Below, one piece after another: positions 6,869 to 63,435 of a DNA stretch of 64,000 nt; within the stretch, counting starts at the first letter, position 1; the number at the start of each line of letters is the position of its first letter. Position numbers and translations under genes: made by a program. This stretch comes from Parcubacteria group bacterium GW2011_GWA2_38_13b (lineage in GTDB: Bacteria; Patescibacteriota; Minisyncoccia; GWA2-38-13b). Where the stretch lies: assembly GCA_000992445.2 (NCBI GenBank), contig LBUF02000011.1, forward strand, positions 35,556-99,555. The letters are read 5' to 3'. The notes beneath the pieces are model-generated. The model ran no database searches. It saw nothing but the letters and a program-made list of their open reading frames with translations, and had not been told where the DNA came from.

Positions 6869-7977
6869 AAATGTATTCTTGATACCAGCGGGTTAATTCT
6901 TGCCGTAATTTCATAATTGATTGTGCCACAATATTCGGCTATTTCTTCTACGGTTATTTCTTCTCGATCCTGTTTACCGAGCAATACCGCTTCATCGCCT
7001 ATTCGCGCATTTGGAATGTCTGTCACATCAACCATTGTCATATTCATACAAACTCTGCCTAAAATCTTGCATCGTTTGCCGTGAATCAAAACCTCGCCTA
7101 TTTTTGATAACCTTCTGTCGTAACCGTCCCAATAGCCAACTGGCAAGATAGCGATTTTTGTTTTTCGTTTCGTTATTTCCGCGCATCCATAACCTATGCA
7201 ATTTTCTTTTTCGGAATGTTTGAGTTGAATTATTCTCGTCTTCCATAACATCGCAGATCTCAATTCTATTTTTACACCAAGTTTTTCAGCCGTTATTTTT
7301 GCTTTTGATGACGGCCAAAGTCCGTAAATTCCTAGTCCTATCCTTACCGTGTTAAAACGAGATTCCTGAATAGTCAAAGCGGACGCGGTGGAAGCGATAT
7401 GTTTTATTTGCGGATATAATCCGTTGTTGTTGCATATTTTTATCGCTAATTTGAACTTTTCCAACTGCGATTTTACCGACTTTTCATTATCGCTATCGGC
7501 AAAATGAGAAAAAATTCCGATAATTTCAATATTTTTATACGTTTTAACGGATTTTAAAAATCGCGGCAAATCTTTAAGCGCAATCCCCAGCCGATTCAAA
7601 CCTGTTTCCATCTTAATGTGGATTTTCACTTTATCCGAACACGCCGCGCCCAACGCTTTAACGGTTTCAAAATCATAAACCGTTAAATGACAATTTAATT
7701 TTATTGCTTTTGGCAAATCATTGGCAAAAACATACCCTAATATCAAAATCGGTTTCGTTATTTTATTTTTCCGTAAAATTTCCGCTTCTTCCAAGGAAAA
7801 AACGCCGAGCATATCGGCGCCGTTTTTTTCAACTATCTTTGACACTTCAACGATGCCATATCCATAAGCGTTGGCTTTAACAATGGCTATAAAACAAACA
7901 TCTTTTTCCAGCAAAGACTTTATTGATTTTATATTGTGAACTATGTTTTCCTTGTTGATTTCAAGCCAAGATGCCAT
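6865..7977 (-). CDS. alr: Alanine racemase
   Basis: PLP-lysine motif AIVKANAYGYG. Length is 370 aa. Confidence 0.9.
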   Translation of the reverse strand: MASWLEINKENIVHNIKSIKSLLEKDVCFIAIVKANAYGYGIVEVSKIVEKNGADMLGVFSLEEAEILRKNKITKPILILGYVFANDLPKAIKLNCHLTVYDFETVKALGAACSDKVKIHIKMETGLNRLGIALKDLPRFLKSVKTYKNIEIIGIFSHFADSDNEKSVKSQLEKFKLAIKICNNNGLYPQIKHIASTASALTIQESRFNTVRIGLGIYGLWPSSKAKITAEKLGVKIELRSAMLWKTRIIQLKHSEKENCIGYGCAEITKRKTKIAILPVGYWDGYDRRLSKIGEVLIHGKRCKILGRVCMNMTMVDVTDIPNARIGDEAVLLGKQDREEITVEEIAEYCGTINYEITARINPLVSRIHL

Positions 7978-9328: not shown

Positions 9329-10867
9329 TTATTCCAGTTTCATTGTAGGGAAAAGCACAGTTTCCCTTATCGATGATACGCCGGATAAAATCATGAACAA
9401 TCTATCTAACCCGACACCGAAACCCGCAGTTGGCGGCATTCCGTATTTTAACGCCTCAATAAAATCTTCATCTATCATTTGCGCCTCCTTATCGCCGGCT
9501 TCGCGAAGCCGCATCTGCTCTTCAAATCTTTTCTTTTGTTCAATCGGATCGTTTAATTCCGAAAAACCATTGCCCAATTCCGACCCCATTATTAATATTT
9601 GAAATCTTTCAACAAACCCCGGATCGTCTTTTTTTTCTTTCGCCAAAGGAGAAACAGAAATCGGATGGTCTATAAGAAATAGAGGACCGGTCAGTTTAGG
9701 ACGCGCAGTTTTTTTATAAACCTGGTCTATAATCCGTCCTAATCCCGCTTTTTTCTCAATTTCTATATTTATTTTACGCTTATTTATTTCTTTTATAATA
9801 TCTTCTCTTGTTTTGATGCCATCCAAATTAATACCCGAATATTTTTCAAATACATCTTTATATTTAAGCCGCGGCCATATTTGATTAAAATTTAATCTTG
9901 TCCCTTCGTATTCAAACTCTAATTTGCCGAAAATTTTCTGGGCAACCTTTTTATACATACTTTCCGTGAAATCCATCAGTTGATTATAGTCCCAGTAAGC
10001 GCGGTAAAATTCCAATAAAGTAAATTCCTGCAAATGTTCGCGGGACATTCCTTCGTTGCGGAAAACCTTGCCGATTTCAAAAACTTTGTTAAATCCGCCG
10101 ACTATCAACCGTTTTAAATGAAGCTCCAGTGAAATTCGCAAATGTAAATCAATATTTAATGTATTATGATGCGTAATGAACGGTTCGGCTTCCGCGCCGC
10201 CGGGTATACTTTCCAAAACAGGCGTTTCTACTTCCAAAAAACCGTCTTCTTTCAAATAATTTCTGAAATTGTCAATAAAACGACTTCTTTCGATAAAAAG
10301 CTTGCGCACCTCGGGATTCATCATTAAATCAAGATAACGCTGCCGCAATCTTGATTCAAAATCCTTTAAACCGTACCATTTTTCAGGTATTGGAATCAAC
10401 GCTTTGCTTAATAGCCTGTATGAATCGGCAATTAGACTTTTTTCTCCTCGTTTTGTAGTAAAAGGAATGCCATTAACTTCCATAAAATCTCCTTTGCCAA
10501 AATTATCAGAAAAAAATTTATAATTTTCATCGCCTAACTTGTCTTTTTTAAAATAAACCTGCAGTTTCCCTGTCCCATCTTCAATGTCGACGAACGTTGA
10601 TCCTCCGTGTTCACGAACAGACATAATACGACCGGCTACTGATAATTTCCCGTTGATTGACAATGCTTCAAAATCTGATTTAATTTCTTCGCACGAATAA
10701 TCGCGATTTACTTTCGAGGGATACGGATCAATGCCGGATTTTTTTATATTTTCCAATTTTTTAATATAACCGGCTAAAACATTTTTAAAATTATCCGACA
10801 TAATCTTCCCGGACATATCCGATTTTACCGATTTTTTAAAATCCGCTTTTTTATGTTTTTTATCCAT
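9329..10867 (-). CDS. lysS: Lysyl-tRNA synthetase, class II
   Basis: OB-fold N-domain, FRNEG motif 2 region and GFGVGLDRL motif 3. Confidence 0.95.
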   Translation of the reverse strand: MDKKHKKADFKKSVKSDMSGKIMSDNFKNVLAGYIKKLENIKKSGIDPYPSKVNRDYSCEEIKSDFEALSINGKLSVAGRIMSVREHGGSTFVDIEDGTGKLQVYFKKDKLGDENYKFFSDNFGKGDFMEVNGIPFTTKRGEKSLIADSYRLLSKALIPIPEKWYGLKDFESRLRQRYLDLMMNPEVRKLFIERSRFIDNFRNYLKEDGFLEVETPVLESIPGGAEAEPFITHHNTLNIDLHLRISLELHLKRLIVGGFNKVFEIGKVFRNEGMSREHLQEFTLLEFYRAYWDYNQLMDFTESMYKKVAQKIFGKLEFEYEGTRLNFNQIWPRLKYKDVFEKYSGINLDGIKTREDIIKEINKRKINIEIEKKAGLGRIIDQVYKKTARPKLTGPLFLIDHPISVSPLAKEKKDDPGFVERFQILIMGSELGNGFSELNDPIEQKKRFEEQMRLREAGDKEAQMIDEDFIEALKYGMPPTAGFGVGLDRLFMILSGVSSIRETVLFPTMKLE

Positions 10868-13461: not shown

Positions 13462-13915
13462 ACCAATAAGACAAAAAAATTATAATAATAAGATTAAATG
13501 CCAGAGCCGTAAAAAATGTATTATTAAAAAAAATGATTAAATCATTGCGGGCGATTATTCGATAATCGGCAAACTGCGCCGCAATTTCAACGCAACCCCA
13601 GATTAAAAATTCATAAAATAATAAAACTATAAATAAATTTATAAACAAACTTTTAAAATTTAAACTAAAAATCCGCTGCAAAAATAAAAATAACAAAACA
13701 GAAAAAATCAAACTTACCGTTAAAATTCCGGGGGGCAAGGCGGAAATGCGATCGAAAATCAATCCGACTGCCAATATTAACGAAAGAAAATAATTAACCG
13801 GCAAAATAAAACTTGCAGCCAGGGAAGCCATTAAAACAACTTCTGCGCCGGCAGGCAAAACCGCCACTTTAAACCAAATCAAAATTAACAATAAAAAGGG
13901 TAAAAAATATTTCAC
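13421..13915 (-). CDS. mreD: Rod shape-determining protein MreD; start revised to the GTG at 13915
   Basis: Polytopic small membrane protein after mreC. The GTG is preceded by CTTCTAACGGG, the same context seen at four other GTG starts in this window. The ORF-track ATG at 13954 would add 13 aa. Confidence 0.65.
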   Translation of the reverse strand: MKYFLPFLLLILIWFKVAVLPAGAEVVLMASLAASFILPVNYFLSLILAVGLIFDRISALPPGILTVSLIFSVLLFLFLQRIFSLNFKSLFINLFIVLLFYEFLIWGCVEIAAQFADYRIIARNDLIIFFNNTFFTALAFNLIIIIFLSYWFGKRKVYEYFVKI

Positions 13916-14024
13916 CCCGTTAGAAGTCTGTATTGCGCTGTTTGCCGTTGCCATAAAAATATAATAATGTTTTACGCATTTTCCCCGTTAATGCCGCGCA
14001 TAAAAATTTCCGACGGGGTTCGTG

Positions 14025-20617: not shown

Positions 20618-21097
20618 TTATTTTGATATCCGCACTTTTGCGGCTCTTATAACTTTCCCGTTCAAAGTATAACCTTTCCTCAATTCTTCCAATATCATTC
20701 CCGATTCCTTTTCCGATTCAACGGCCTCAACGGCTTCATGAAATTCCGGATTAAATTTCTCACTGATCGTCTTTATTTCCTGAACCCCGTGATTTTTTAA
20801 AATCCCCCCCAATTGCGTTTTTATCGCCACGATGCCCTGAATCCACCTTGACTGATTTTCGTTTTCCGGTAAATGCTTAACGGCTTCGTCAAAATTGTCA
20901 ATAATCGGCAAAAATTCAAGAACGAAATCTTCACGTGCATATTTTCTAAACATCACTATCGCTTCCTCTTGACGTTTTTTATAATTGATAAAATCCGCTT
21001 TGGCGCGTTTCCAACCATTCAAATATTCATTGGCTTGCGTTTGCCAATCTATTTTACCAACATTGTCGCCATTTTGCTTTGGTTCATCTTGATTCAC
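20618..21097 (-). CDS. grpE: Nucleotide exchange factor GrpE (GTG start)
   Basis: 159 aa GrpE-like dimerisation helix and beta domain. It sits between hrcA and dnaK. Confidence 0.85.
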   Translation of the reverse strand: MNQDEPKQNGDNVGKIDWQTQANEYLNGWKRAKADFINYKKRQEEAIVMFRKYAREDFVLEFLPIIDNFDEAVKHLPENENQSRWIQGIVAIKTQLGGILKNHGVQEIKTISEKFNPEFHEAVEAVESEKESGMILEELRKGYTLNGKVIRAAKVRISK

Positions 21098-21229
21098 CCC
21101 GTTAAATATCTACCCTTATATAATTTAACATAACTTCAGATAGATATTTTATTATAATGCAACCTTCGTTAGTTTAGTGCGGAAAAATTTTAAAAAAATT
21201 TTCCGCCATAGACCTCTAACGGGGTTCAT
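21098..21229 (-). promoter_or_regulatory. grpE leader element (hairpin + CTAACGrGG boxes)
   Basis: Hairpin GCGGAAAA..TTTTCCGC at 21179-21206 and an ACTAACGAAGG box. CCCCGTTAG at 21216-24 (includes the hrcA stop) is complementary to the TAACGGGG at the grpE GTG. Confidence 0.45.
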
Positions 21230-21911
21230 TATTGCATGATAATATTTTTACCAATTCATTTATAAGCGCTATATTCCTATCATACCTCATTCTTGTCGGA
21301 CCTAAAAGCGCTATTATTCCTTGTTTTTTTGACGAAATATTGTAAGAAGAAATAATCATACTGCACTTTTCCAAGAGCAATGGATTTTCTTTGTCTATAT
21401 AAACAACGGTACCGTTATCGGAAACGCTATCAATGATTTTATCGGTATAATCATAAATATTTTCCAGCTTATTTACCAAATTTTGCAAAATCTCCAAATT
21501 ATTATAAAATTCCGGTTCTCCCAATAAAACATCCAATCCCGCGTTAAGCAAATTGTCATCAATAAAATTTATAACAAGCGAGCTTGAATACTCGGCAATA
21601 TATTTCAAACATTCGCGGGGAAAAGACATAAATTCATTGAATACTTGAGGCAATTTTATTTTATGCTCCTTTTCGCGGTCAATTGAATCAACAAACATCT
21701 TATAAGCTTTTGTCGTAGGGATTCTGCCGCCGGAAGTATACAATTGCGCCAAATAACCATTTTTTGTCAGCCACGCCATTTCCATTCTGATAGTCGCGGG
21801 ACTCGCGGAAATATCATATTTTTCATAAATCAAATTCGATCCCACCGGTATGGAATTTTCAATATGCTCATCGATAACGGAAAATAAAATTTGTTGTCGG
21901 CGAGAATTCAT
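21216..21911 (-). CDS. hrcA: Heat-inducible repressor HrcA (short form); start revised to the ATG at 21911
   Basis: N-terminal wHTH (MNSRRQQILFSVIDEHIENSIPVGS) and a C-terminal GPTRMRY motif. The longer ORF-track start would place the CIRCE operator inside the CDS. Confidence 0.8.
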   Translation of the reverse strand: MNSRRQQILFSVIDEHIENSIPVGSNLIYEKYDISASPATIRMEMAWLTKNGYLAQLYTSGGRIPTTKAYKMFVDSIDREKEHKIKLPQVFNEFMSFPRECLKYIAEYSSSLVINFIDDNLLNAGLDVLLGEPEFYNNLEILQNLVNKLENIYDYTDKIIDSVSDNGTVVYIDKENPLLLEKCSMIISSYNISSKKQGIIALLGPTRMRYDRNIALINELVKILSCNNEPR

Positions 21912-22366: not shown

Positions 22367-22390
22367 TTATGAGCCCCGCCAGATATCCTC

Positions 22391-22504
22391 GGCAGAAAAA
22401 TTTCATTGAAATTTTTCTGCGTGGAACTAACAAGGATTACATATTTTAATTTTGGTCTGCCCGAAATTAACCAATTGGTTATATAGGAGCAGACTTTTAA
22501 CGGG
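22391..22504 (+). promoter_or_regulatory. prfA leader element (homologous to the rpsU and grpE leaders)
   Basis: Perfect 12-bp hairpin GCAGAAAAATTT/AAATTTTTCTGC, a GAACTAACAAGG box, a TATATA box and AGACTTTTAACGGG running into the GTG start. Confidence 0.5.
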
Positions 22505-23554
22505 GTGAACAAAGAAATACTGAAAAAAATAAAAGAAGCCCGTGAAAATTATGAACAGATAAATAAACAACTTAGCGATCCTAAGATTGTTTCCGATTTC
22601 CAAAAAGTCAAAGAATTAACCCAAGAACATTCCAGGCTAAAAGAAGTCGTTGGCGCTTTTGAAGAAATTGAGAAAATTGAAAAAAAAATAAAAGAAGCGG
22701 AAAATATTATCGGTTCCGAAACAGATCCGGAATTAACTGAATTGGCCGACGAAGAAATAAAAGAACTGACGGTAAAAAAAGAAAATTTATCGGCAAAGAT
22801 TGAAAATTTTTTCTCGCCGAAAAAAGACGCGGAAAACAATATAATAATGGAAATCCGCGCCGGAACTGGTGGCGAAGAAGCGGCGATTTTTGCGGTTGAA
22901 ATTTTCAGAATGTATTCGCGTTACGCCGAAAAACGCCAATGGAAACTAAATATAATTGATTCCAGTCAAAGCGAACTAGGAGGATACAAAACGATTATTT
23001 TTGAAATAAAAGGTGGCGGAGTTTATGAAGAAATGAAATTTGAATCTGGCGTTCACCGCGTTCAACGGGTTCCGGAAACGGAAAAAAACGGTCGAGTCCA
23101 CACTTCAACGGCAACAGTCGCCGTTTTGCCCCAAGCAAAAGAAATTGACGTGCAGATAAATCCACAGGATATTGAAGTAACAACCGCGAGAGCCGGCGGT
23201 CCAGGCGGTCAAAACGTCAATAAAGTGGAAACGGCGGTCAGGATTACCCACAAACCGACGGGTATCGCGATTTTAAGCCGCGCCGAGAGAAACCAACAGC
23301 AAAATCGGGAAAAAGCGATGATGATTTTGCGGTCAAAACTACTGGATCTCAAAAAACAAGAAGAGGATAAAAAAAGGACATCCGAACGAAAATCGCAAAT
23401 CGGTTCCGCCGACCGATCGGAAAAAATAAGAACCTATAACTTCCCGCAAGACAGAATAACCGACCATAGAATAAAAAAAACCTGGCACAATATTCCGAAA
23501 ATAATGGACGGCGACTTGGGACAAATTATCAATGAACTGAAAAACACGATATAA
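22505..23554 (+). CDS. prfA: Peptide chain release factor 1 (GTG start)
   Basis: GGQ motif ([11 protein letters not shown]). The PxT-type tripeptide (VPETE) indicates RF1 rather than RF2. Confidence 0.93.
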
Positions 23555-25821: not shown

Positions 25822-26550
25822 CTATTTTTCTCCTTTCTTTTTATTATTCGCCGTATCTTTTACGCCGCCCTTATTATCTTTCGCTTCCGTTTCTTCCTTG
25901 CTTTCCTTATTTTCTTTGCCAACCACTTTAATATCTCCGACTAAACCCGTTGGAGCGCCTCCCAATTCTTCTTTTATTTCTTCTTCCGTCTTTGGTTTTT
26001 TCACCGTTACCACGACAATTTCCGGATCCTGGGCAAGAGTAACGTTTTCTGGAAGCACAATGTCTTTTACCTTAATAACATCGCCAAAGTTTCCTAATAA
26101 ACTGATATCAATTTTTATTTCACGAGGCACATTGATAGGCAAAACTTCAATTTCTATGCTATCCAAATGCTTATCCATAATACCTCCGTCATTCTTTACG
26201 AGCAAAGAATCGCCCGTAAAAACAAGGGGTACCATTATTTTAATCTTTTTATCCATTCTTATCGCATATAAATCAATATGAATAATCTTGTCAGTAACGC
26301 CATCCTTAACGACATCTTGAATCAACACGTTATCATTTTTAAGTTTTCTATCCGAAATATTTAATTTAATAATCGTATTTTGACCAGCTTTTTCATAAAT
26401 ATTGCCAAATTCGTTATAATTTATTTCAATTGGCGTATTTTCCGTATTAAAACCATAAAATATACCGGGTATTTTGCCGGATTTTCGCAAATCGCCAAGA
26501 TTCTTGCCGATATTTTTTCTAATTGTCGCATTAAGCGTTAAATTATTCAC
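25822..26550 (-). CDS. rplY: Ribosomal protein L25/Ctc with a K/E-rich tail (GTG start)
   Basis: NNLTLNATIRKNIGK...GKIPGIFYG matches the L25 N-terminus. Confidence 0.88.
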   Translation of the reverse strand: MNNLTLNATIRKNIGKNLGDLRKSGKIPGIFYGFNTENTPIEINYNEFGNIYEKAGQNTIIKLNISDRKLKNDNVLIQDVVKDGVTDKIIHIDLYAIRMDKKIKIMVPLVFTGDSLLVKNDGGIMDKHLDSIEIEVLPINVPREIKIDISLLGNFGDVIKVKDIVLPENVTLAQDPEIVVVTVKKPKTEEEIKEELGGAPTGLVGDIKVVGKENKESKEETEAKDNKGGVKDTANNKKKGEK

Positions 26551-26691
26551 CCCGTTAGAAGTTTATCTTTATATGACCGATGTCAACTTTAGATAGACAT
26601 ATATTTACAACTTGACCCTTATTGGTTCATAATCAATAATCTATCACAAATTATTTATAAATACAAGTGCGGCGCGCTATCGATAGACAAG

Positions 26692-30438: not shown

Positions 30439-30650
30439 ATTTTACCCAACCTCTTGAGTTCTTCGTACTCTTGACGGCGTTTTACGCGCGCAAGAGCCGA
30501 TTTCCTCATTATTCTTTTAGTCAACGGCTGCTCTCTATGCTTGCGTCTTTTCGCTTCTTGTAAAACTCCGGCGCGATGAATTTGCTGGGAAAAACGACGC
30601 ACTAAAGCTCCAGCAGTTTCATTTGGTTTTTTTGTAATTTTTATTTTCAC
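30435..30650 (-). CDS. rpsU: Ribosomal protein S21 (GTG start)
   Basis: 71 aa, basic, with ALVRRFSQ...RRKHREQP, typical of S21. Confidence 0.88.
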   Translation of the reverse strand: MKIKITKKPNETAGALVRRFSQQIHRAGVLQEAKRRKHREQPLTKRIMRKSALARVKRRQEYEELKRLGKI

Positions 30651-30803
30651 TCCGTTAGAAGTTTGTCTTTACCCCGTTGGAAACACCGTTTCTAACGGGA
30701 TTTGCATAACCAAACGGTTAATTTCAGACAAACTTAAATTAAAAGACATAAACCTCGTTAGTCCGGAGCAGAAAAATTTTCTTCAAAGAAAATTTTTTCG
30801 CGC
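30651..30803 (-). promoter_or_regulatory. rpsU leader element (homologous to the prfA leader, with an extra hairpin)
   Basis: Hairpin at 30768-30803, GACTAACGAGG box, GAAATTAACCGTTTGGTTAT, an extra CCCGTTAGAAAC/GTTTCCAACGGG hairpin, and CTTCTAACGGA running into the GTG start. Confidence 0.5.
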
Positions 30804-30835
30804 AAGACTTTAAACAGGGTTCTTGATTCAAAAAT

Positions 30836-50095: not shown

Positions 50096-50181
50096 CCCCC
50101 ATTAGAAATTAAAAATTTGCGCTGTCATAATAAATTTATATTTTAAATCCCCGTAATTAATCTATGAAATTTCTAACGGGG
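50096..50181 (-). promoter_or_regulatory. Long hairpin in the rpoB-rpoC spacer built from the CCCCGTTAGAAATT motif
   Basis: On the minus-strand RNA, CCCCGUUAGAAAUU...AAUUUCUAAUGGGG forms 14 bp, with the single difference giving a G-U pair. The loop is 57 nt. Confidence 0.55.
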
Positions 50182-62114: not shown

Positions 62115-63380
62115 TTAGTCGTTAATTCTTTGTATGTCCGCTCCGATGGCGCGCAACCGTTCGTCTATTTTTTCGTACCCCCGATCAATCTGATAAATAT
62201 TTTCAATAATCGTTTCGCCTTTCGCCATAAGTCCGGCAATTATTAAAGCGATGCCAGCCCTTATGTCAGGACTGAAAACTTTGGCACCATAAAGTTTTAC
62301 CGGCCCATTAACGACAACCCGATGCGGATCGCATAAAATAATATTGGCGCCCATTTTATTCAATATGTCCGTGTAAAAAAGCCGACCTTCATAAATCGTT
62401 TCGTGAACCATACTTAATCCTTTCAATTGCGTTAACAAAACGGTAAGAGGCGGCTGAAGATCGGTAGCCAGCCCCGGGTACTCATGTGTTTTTATATTTA
62501 TCGCTTTATGATTATTTTTCTGCCGCCCGACTATGGCATAATCATTTCCCAATGAAAAATTAACGCCTATTTCTTTAAATATTTGCCATAATACTTCAAG
62601 ATGCGCCGGATTCATCTTTTTTATTTTAATATTGCTATTGGTAGCCGCGGCTAAAATAGCGAAACTTCCCGCTTCTATTCTATCCGGCATAGTTTCGTAA
62701 ATTCCGGATTTTATTTCTTTTACCCCGTCAATTATTATGGTTGAGGTTCCGGCGCCCTGAATTTTAGCTCCGCATTTATTTAAAAATTCCGCCAAACTTT
62801 GAATTTCCGGCTCTTGCGCGGCGTTTTTCAAAACGGTCCGGCCTTGAGCCACAACCCCGAGTATCATTAATGTTTCGGTCGCGGTAACGCTTATTTGTCT
62901 AAAAAAGAAATCGGCGCCGCGAATTTTTTTAGCGCTGATAACATATTTATCTTTGCCTAATTTCACATCCGCGCCAAACGCCCTAAAACCGTCCAAAAAA
63001 ATATCAATCGGGCGTTTTCCCAAAAGACAGCCACCCGGATGATAAAATTCAACCTTGCCCATTCTTGCCAAAAGAGGAGCGACAAGCGTTATCGAAGCGC
63101 GCAATTTTCTCGTTTTGTCTTCATCTAATATATTTGACTTAACATTTAAAGCGCATATATCATATCCGTTTTCTCCTTTTTTATTCACTTTCACACCAAG
63201 ATCGCTTAAAATTTCACCCATCCTGACAATATCTTCAATATTCGGTACATTGCGCAATTGCCAAAGTTTTTTTGATAAAAGCGCGGCGGCGAAAAATTTC
63301 AGAGCCGCGTTTTTCGCGCCCCCGACTTCAATTTCCCCGCTAAGTTTTTTCCCGCCTTTTATAATAAACTTTTCCATCAC
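62115..63380 (-). CDS. murA: UDP-N-acetylglucosamine 1-carboxyvinyltransferase
   Basis: GGAKNAAL near the N-terminus and the catalytic Cys loop HPGGCLLGKRPID. The start is the GTG at 63380 or the adjacent ATG at 63377. Confidence 0.95.
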   Translation of the reverse strand: MMEKFIIKGGKKLSGEIEVGGAKNAALKFFAAALLSKKLWQLRNVPNIEDIVRMGEILSDLGVKVNKKGENGYDICALNVKSNILDEDKTRKLRASITLVAPLLARMGKVEFYHPGGCLLGKRPIDIFLDGFRAFGADVKLGKDKYVISAKKIRGADFFFRQISVTATETLMILGVVAQGRTVLKNAAQEPEIQSLAEFLNKCGAKIQGAGTSTIIIDGVKEIKSGIYETMPDRIEAGSFAILAAATNSNIKIKKMNPAHLEVLWQIFKEIGVNFSLGNDYAIVGRQKNNHKAINIKTHEYPGLATDLQPPLTVLLTQLKGLSMVHETIYEGRLFYTDILNKMGANIILCDPHRVVVNGPVKLYGAKVFSPDIRAGIALIIAGLMAKGETIIENIYQIDRGYEKIDERLRAIGADIQRIND

Positions 63381-63435
63381 CCCAATCCTATCATTATTAT
63401 TTTATTTATTCAACCCAGTTAGAAATTTCAAAAAA

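Follow-up and report, generated by a model that had tools for sequence, protein, structure and literature searches.

The closest described counterparts of the repeat analyzed here are bacterial MITEs, in particular the Correia/NEMIS elements of Neisseria: like our repeat, they are short and non-coding, have terminal inverted repeats, duplicate their target site, and occur in many dispersed copies, often beside gene starts. Correia elements also contribute promoter elements, and appear as hairpins in co-transcripts. REP elements and REPINs are tied to RAYT genes, and neither they nor uptake-sequence pairs are known to make target-site duplications. The IS1380 family and piggyBac-like transposons, which combine a 4-bp duplication with arms of about 13 bp starting with CC(C), are possible parents of the repeat.

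We have analyzed a 64-kb stretch of DNA (the window, G+C content about 37%), whose release factor RF1 is nearest to groundwater-metagenome proteins labelled "Patescibacteria group bacterium". Scans of the window and comparative scans have identified the start context CTTCTAACGGGGTGAA as the end of a small transposable repeat. With high confidence, the element is a non-autonomous transposon, a MITE, and the motif is the terminal inverted repeat on its gene-proximal side. A puzzling, highly conserved "start context" of Patescibacteria is hence explained as transposon sequence, not as ribosome biology, which bears on the way genes are called, and translation signals inferred from motifs, in uncultured lineages.

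The start-codon motif and its genes

The sharing of one start motif by five genes, proposed in the first-pass annotation of the window, is borne out by the counts. With at most one mismatch, TAACGGGGTGAA occurs five times in the 64-kb window (0.37 occurrences expected), and none of 100 shuffled sequences reaches five. In all five cases the GTG of the motif opens a long ORF. The proposed gene identities hold for four of them, with Pfam matches to GrpE, RF1 (domains PCRF and RF-1), L25/TL5 and S21, whereas the fifth ORF, located 3' of MreC, has no Pfam match and is a putative MreD only.

The statement that no alternative start lies nearby also holds for four of the five genes. An in-frame stop is found 4-7 codons upstream of the grpE, prfA, rplY and rpsU starts, and the GTG is the first possible start after this stop. 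The exception is the putative mreD, where an in-frame ATG at position 13954, 13 codons upstream of the GTG and inside the element, is an alternative start. Public gene calls begin L25 (242 aa) at the same GTG, and the GTG of the motif is very probably the true start codon. In a relative, RF1 begins with MNKEILKK, its ATG occupying the codon equivalent to the prfA GTG of the window.

Three further observations of the first pass are supported, namely the fixed leader common to these genes, the absence of a normally spaced Shine-Dalgarno sequence 5' of them, and the TATA(T/A)A box, which corresponds to a highly conserved ATATAA in the 3' half of a hairpin that covaries within the element.

Structure, flanks and distribution of the copies

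At least six copies of the element and one remnant are found within the 64 kb (Table 1). In this lineage the element measures about 130 nt, and the shortest copies have about 29 nt (two arms and a loop); the window elements span 86-170 nt and have no ORF inside. The arms are 13-15 bp long and read CCCCGTTAGAAGT(CT) at one end and (AG)ACTTCTAACGGGG at the other, the core comprising 13 nt and the consensus extending to about 15 bp. The interior varies from 3 nt to about 140 nt among the species-representative matches listed, and is typically about 100 nt in Patescibacteria, where its parts follow in the order: an A/T-rich hairpin (H1), a TAACGGGG box with a TATAAT-like hexamer directly after it, an A-rich stretch, and a second hairpin (H2) with consensus arms GTCTGTCTGAAATTAGC..GCTATATAAGGACAGAC. 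The same interior layout is seen at all five window sites, with upstream arms variously decayed. Inverted arms together with a duplication of fixed length and variable sequence (see below) indicate a transposable element, and the small size and the lack of an ORF indicate a MITE.

The gene-proximal arms of the five window copies have 0, 0, 1, 1 and 3 mismatches, and the distal ones 1, 3, 3 and 4, with one arm lost; better preservation of the gene-proximal arm fits selection on the new start region (n=5). In a further comparison of arm decay with an nhmmer profile of the interior, the matches were mostly partial or reverse-strand noise.

In type-A elements, an internal (T)AACGGGG box, placed directly before the TATAAT-like hexamer, is identical to the last 8 nt of the arm and has the same orientation. 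The box is possibly a subterminal repeat to which the transposase binds, or else reflects a composite origin.

Table 1. Element copies in the window, their parts and the adjoining gene starts and stops
Site	Feature	Window position (strand)	Sequence or remark
Five motif starts	first G of the motif GTG	13915(-), 21097(-), 22505(+), 26550(-), 30650(-)	
mreC-putative mreD	element	13915..14018 (-)	flanks CGAA and TGAA; GTG 13915
mreC-putative mreD	5' arm	14006-14018 (-)	CCCCGTCGGAAAT
mreC-putative mreD	3' arm	13915-13927 (-)	ACTTCTAACGGGG
mreC-putative mreD	internal (T)AACGGGG box	13983-13990	
hrcA-grpE	element	21097..21224 (-)	complete, 128 nt
hrcA-grpE	5' arm	21212-21224 (-)	CCCCGTTAGAGGT
hrcA-grpE	3' arm	21097-21109 (-)	ATATTTAACGGGG
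hrcA-grpE	target-site duplication	21225-21228 and 21093-21096 (-)	TGAA
hrcA-grpE	H1	21179-21206 (-)	
hrcA-grpE	TAAC..TATAAT box	21151-21171 (-)	
hrcA-grpE	internal (T)AACGGGG box	21164-21171	
hrcA-grpE	H2	21108-21145 (-)	
hrcA-grpE	present hrcA stop	21216-21218 (-)	TAG within 5' arm
hrcA-grpE	grpE start	21097 (-)	GTG
rpmE-prfA	element	22374..22505 (+)	132 nt
rpmE-prfA	5' arm	22374-22386 (+)	CCCCGCCAGATAT; decayed
rpmE-prfA	3' arm	22493-22505 (+)	ACTTTTAACGGGG
rpmE-prfA	left flank	22370-22373 (+)	TGAG
rpmE-prfA	right flank	22506-22509 (+)	TGAA
rpmE-prfA	prfA relic start	22369-22371 (+)	ATG
rpmE-prfA	prfA new start	22505-22507 (+)	GTG
rpmE-prfA	H1	22392-22420 (+)	
rpmE-prfA	box	22428-22450 (+)	
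rpmE-prfA	internal (T)AACGGGG box	22428-22435	
rpmE-prfA	H2	22455-22494 (+)	
rplY	gene-proximal arm	26550..26562 (-)	ACTTCTAACGGGG; last G 26550 = first base of GTG 26550-26548
rplY	right target-site duplication	26546..26549 (-)	TGAA; with G26550 gives GTG AAT, the L25 start
rplY	subterminal hairpin H2	26561..26598 (-)	GTCTATCTAAAGTTGAC..GTCATATAAAGATAAAC; holds TATA(T/A)A
rplY	ATGAA	26626..26630 (-)	left TGAA 26629-26626 preceded by A26630
HIT-family gene-rpsU	element	30650..30819 (-)	GTG 30650
HIT-family gene-rpsU	5' arm	30807-30819 (-)	CCCTGTTTAAAGT
HIT-family gene-rpsU	3' arm	30650-30662 (-)	ACTTCTAACGGAG
HIT-family gene-rpsU	nested arm-loop-arm mini-copy	30672-30699 (-)	28-30 nt, CCCGTTAGAAAC-GGT-GTTTCCAACGGGG; inside H2
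rpoB-rpoC	element	50096..50181 (-)	86 nt; duplication TAAA/TAAA; no gene start at end
murA upstream region	solitary degenerate arm	63408..63426 (-)	ATTTCTAACTGGG TTGAAT; between terminator-like hairpin and murA

The segment 26548-26640, to which the first-pass annotation had drawn attention, is essentially one truncated copy with its flanks. The 5' arm of this rplY copy is mostly lost (CCAATAAGGG...), and the ATGAA upstream of it may, by analogy with the prfA and grpE sites, be the displaced original rplY start. Compared with the other copies, the rpoB-rpoC copy shows a compensatory change in its arms (CCCCGTTAGAAAT and ATTTCTAATGGGGG). The solitary arm near murA is probably a remnant, possibly of an old, eroded copy; in this region (window 63369-63426 (-)) murA itself starts at GGGGTGATGGAA, where the GTG and the adjacent ATG are both possible. 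The insertion between hrcA and grpE has altered the C-terminus of HrcA, which ends in ...NEPR* at the TAG of the arm (window 21216-21230 (-)), whereas in the relative L249 the protein ends in ...NNGRR*, overlapping grpE (7323-7340 (-)).

The mini-copy nested in the rpsU element has a similar counterpart at the equivalent place of the prfA element of L249 (about 9950-9982 (+)), and copies with interiors of 3-9 nt are found in L051, L044, L085 and L090. Judging from these mini-copies, two arms alone seem sufficient for mobility. In L013 (1021-1058 (+)) an ORF of 457-464 aa is preceded by two tandem, in-frame copies of the arm end (ACTTCTAACGGGGTGAACAAA).

Beyond the window, species-representative genomes were scanned for ACTTYTAACGGRGTGAA, yielding at least 120 loci, with about 125 exact motif matches listed. 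The partner arm CCCCGTTAGAAGT (at most two mismatches) is present within 200 nt upstream in 106 of these approximately 125 listed matches, and in none of 12 chance-type matches from organisms outside the element-carrying lineages. Metagenome contigs were scanned on the two 13-mer arms alone, 90-120 nt apart, leaving the flanks unselected, and at least 123 elements were obtained. Among the 123 listed, 95 are flanked by identical 4-nt direct repeats (shuffled pairings average 11.9 and never exceed 23), and only three by reverse-complement pairs. The 95 matching listed elements have 20 different duplicated 4-mers, the commonest being TGAA (27), followed by TTGA (10), TATG (9), TTCA (8), TCAA (7), TAAA (5) and CTTG (5), with 24 others; about three quarters of the 4-bp duplications in the listed metagenome elements conform to the pattern T..A.

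Many copies are dispersed, several of them per MAG (e.g. Nealsonbacteria C24 in L015, L079, L104 and L119). The motif matches listed come mostly from Patescibacteria, the others from MAGs labelled Omnitrophota, Planctomycetota, Elusimicrobiota, Nitrospirota, Thermodesulfobacteriota and further groups. Viral contigs contributed one match only, thus giving no sign of phage association. In MAGs assigned outside Patescibacteria, matching TGAA flanks are seen in 11 of 31 elements listed, in a sample selected with TGAA on one side; these copies may have been rearranged, may be older than the others, or may differ in kind.

Some copies deviate from the common layout. In Omnitrophota, Planctomycetota and Elusimicrobiota MAGs and some Patescibacteria, the same arms enclose about 36-45 nt of the form A-(hairpin)-G-(hairpin) (L008, L020, L032, L043, L052, L054, L088, L094, L101, L106, L111 and others), with G+C-rich stems whose sequence differs between copies, and with matching flanks being rarer; they belong either to the same mobile family or to a derived structured element. 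In a Deltaproteobacteria MAG (L100), around two motif matches, the inverted repeat runs 9 nt past the arms (GCCGATTCA-CCCC...GGGG-TGAATCGGC), unlike the direct-repeat rule. In a Paceibacterota MAG (L021), about 150 nt upstream of position 923, the arms enclose about 140 nt including what resembles, by eye, a complete tRNA gene; the copy may carry this gene as cargo, or the two arms may be unrelated.

In about 1.5 Mb of retrieved loci, neither an autonomous copy, in which the same arms would enclose a transposase, nor a solitary arm beside a transposase is found. The mobilising enzyme would be a DDE-type transposase. The window and 20 loci have no Rfam match at the gathering score, the prfA leader has only chance-level matches at E <= 10, and the tRNA scan of the window found none. 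The literature search, its coverage leaving out most subscription journals, returned no description of the element, and this MITE family of Patescibacteria is apparently hitherto undescribed.

Empty sites, origin of the GTG starts and alternative explanations

The insertions can be compared with uninterrupted sites in close relatives. When the element and one duplicate are removed from the window sequence and the result is aligned with a relative, the reconstructed empty sites are colinear with it, with no gap at the junction, at all three sites so analyzed (prfA, hrcA-grpE and rpoB-rpoC). The window prfA site has the form ATGAG-(element)-TGAACAAA, or, in longer context, ...CTCTTTTTCTTATGAG-(132-nt element)-TGAACAAAGAAATACT, whereas L247, with RF1 86% identical, has no element 5' of prfA and reads CTCTTTTTCTTATGAATAAGGAAATATT, its RF1 beginning with ATG AAT AAG (MNK). 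In L249 (RF1 90% identical) the prfA insertion of the window is likewise present, its arms intact and its flanks TGAA/TGAA, but the element is absent between rpoB and rpoC and between hrcA and grpE, the latter two genes overlapping there by 14 nt, with grpE starting as ATG GAC GAA GAT. As insertions differ between relatives with 86-90% identical RF1, these very small, compact genomes carry a MITE family that is active or was so recently.

The course of insertion is as follows. The element duplicates 4 bp of its target, most often TGAA, and insertion into a gene start of the form A/TGAA/n converts it to ATGAA-(CCCC...GGGG)-TGAAn. The old ATG is left about 130 nt upstream, often along with the TGA of an overlapping upstream gene, and the terminal G of the element joins the TG of the right duplicate to form GTG AAn in the original reading frame. 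With other duplications, such as TATG, CTTG and TTGA, the duplicate itself gives an ATG or TTG 0-1 nt after the arm.

The joining of G to a duplicated TGAA explains why codon 2 is AAn (Lys or Asn) in every case, and insertion into ATGAA accounts for the 5' flank ATGAA in 26 of the 99 listed elements of the flank-unselected metagenome set that were oriented by interior features only. In the genome set, TGAA is the 5' flank in 46 of 69 Patescibacteria elements listed. An ORF of at least 60 aa lies downstream of 59 of the 99 oriented metagenome elements listed; among these 59, GTG is found at -1 in 35 and ATG at +1 in nine, and the start falls within -1 to +6 in 48. Upstream genes often end at the TGA of ATGAA or at the TAG inside the 5' arm, stops in or beside this arm making up about a quarter of the co-directional cases listed. 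Demonstrated here are the inverted arms, the 4-bp duplication, the clean presence or absence at orthologous sites, the conservation of the frame and the orientation of the H2 end toward gene starts (see below). Insertions within start/stop junctions of essential genes are made harmless by the arm and duplicate sequences.

The first-pass annotation had proposed a distinct initiation mode or signal for a subset of genes. In such a reading the motif would be a dedicated, non-mobile sequence kept for pairing with 16S rRNA or for binding an initiation factor. We consider this very unlikely, although AACGGGGUGA can pair with the tail 3'-UUCCUCCACU-5' at nine of ten positions (by eye, with the canonical tail, as neither the window nor the loci contain a 16S rRNA gene), most copies have the start codon within 0-1 nt of the arm end, and the gene-proximal arms of the window are the better kept ones. 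The start lies at -1 to +1 from the GGGG end in 44 of the 59 elements listed, away from the Shine-Dalgarno position (about 4-9 nt upstream), and pairing of GGGGUG with the anti-Shine-Dalgarno sequence would leave 0-1 nt to the start, a spacing incompatible with Shine-Dalgarno function. Moreover, the 13-mer forms half of an inverted repeat that is flanked by 4-bp target-site duplications. It is also found at the ends of genes, in places with no ORF and between convergent genes, one copy away from gene starts being that between rpoB and rpoC in the window, and the orthologues in relatives with 86-90% RF1 identity have ATG starts and no such motif, likewise without a Shine-Dalgarno sequence. The occurrence of the motif away from starts and the motif-less orthologues mean that the gene subset is defined by landing sites of the mobile element, not by gene function. 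Since the uninterrupted prfA and grpE starts of relatives have no obvious Shine-Dalgarno sequence, initiation at these genes was probably independent of it before the insertion too.

Even less likely is a structured cis-regulatory RNA, whose arms would form a long-range helix of 13-17 bp sequestering the start codon; a ribosome that terminates in the 5' arm would open this helix (translational coupling), or RNase III would cleave it. The arms are indeed complementary, with compensatory changes in some copies (GAAAT/ATTTC and GAATT/AATTC), but this is expected of any inverted-repeat transposon, and the decay of the 5' arms in the window means that the helix is not maintained. The upstream stops in or beside the 5' arm and the folding of the grpE leader (z = -4.2) would also suit such an RNA; against it, the 4-nt flanks are direct, not complementary, repeats, and the element is polymorphic in its presence at orthologous sites. 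A variant of the helix with UGAA/UGAA as tandem G-A pairs was dropped, as the flanks of elements retrieved by arms only are direct repeats of any sequence.

A REP/REPIN-type palindrome, an uptake-sequence pair or a terminator hairpin in place of a cut-and-paste element is the least credible of these readings: the element is intergenic, palindromic, multi-copy and sometimes located between convergent genes, but its insertions are exact, no U-tract follows the arms, and 95 of 123 listed copies have target-site duplications. Integron attC sites (inverted core-site order), ECF-sigma promoters (wrong spacing), DNA-uptake sequence pairs, parS, boxA, the T7 epsilon enhancer and mimicry of 16S h44 or 5S rRNA were set aside on the basis of the sequence and general knowledge.

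The interior, its possible role and comparison with known systems

Returning to the MITE and its interior, of the 99 oriented elements listed, 49 have a gene start next to the H2 end and nine have one next to the H1 end. This bias exists although both arms could equally form G plus TGAA, and hence the interior has a bearing on which insertions arise or are kept. Hairpin H2 covaries: 89% of the cells are paired, with 64 double-change cells compared to 21.6 +/- 5.2 in shuffles, and pairing drops to 29-49% when the register is slid. The internal-loop residues GAAAUU and AUAUAA are almost invariant.

The TATAAT-like box is located about 55 nt, and ATATAA about 17 nt, upstream of the start, and by sequence either could be a -10 element; with ATATAA in this role, the leader would have the 10-15 nt suggested in the first pass. 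A generic scan for sigma-70 promoters and terminators, run on AT-rich DNA, yields 78 promoter-like sites versus 57 expected and does not single out the boxes of the element. The directionality and the covarying hairpin suggest that the interior acts as an outward promoter and leader now driving the downstream gene, and the arm end bearing the start codon may be retained by selection while the other arm decays. Copies at start/stop junctions may reflect either a choice of target or the tolerance of only such insertions in compact genomes, the latter being our surmise.

We put forward, tentatively and as something short of an even chance, that the element is a portable expression unit which persists almost only on start/stop junctions, providing a stop in its upstream arm, a regenerated start, and a promoter and leader in its interior, and which has rewired many essential genes. 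A stronger version would have a putative transposase actively target start-codon contexts. If the portable unit is real, ribosomal proteins, RF1 and chaperones have been rewired onto transposon-borne signals and GTG starts, possibly also in other groundwater phyla with the same arms. If the promoter and leader of the interior are functional, the element is a natural mobile expression cassette and a possible tool for Patescibacteria genetics.

The features of the element overlap with those of several known systems. It shares with REP elements and REPINs only the character of abundant intergenic palindromes. As regards IS1380 and piggyBac, no transposase gene is found between such arms, and no sequence evidence ties the arms to any IS family. 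Similar to Shine-Dalgarno and other start-context motifs, the motif is G-rich, directly precedes starts and is partly complementary to the anti-Shine-Dalgarno sequence; unlike them, it is spaced by 0-1 nt, is derived from transposition and also occurs away from starts. The Rickettsia palindromic elements, too, are mobile palindromes tolerated at or in coding regions, with the reading frame surviving, but translation does not run through the window element, which divides a stop/start junction and gives the upstream gene a stop (TAG of the arm or TGA of the duplicate) and the downstream gene a new start. Finally, in contrast to the Correia/NEMIS elements, to which its arm sequence is unrelated, the window element makes a variable 4-bp duplication instead of TA, has the same arms in MAGs assigned to several phyla, and re-creates, by its arm end and the duplicate, the start codon of the gene that it interrupts.
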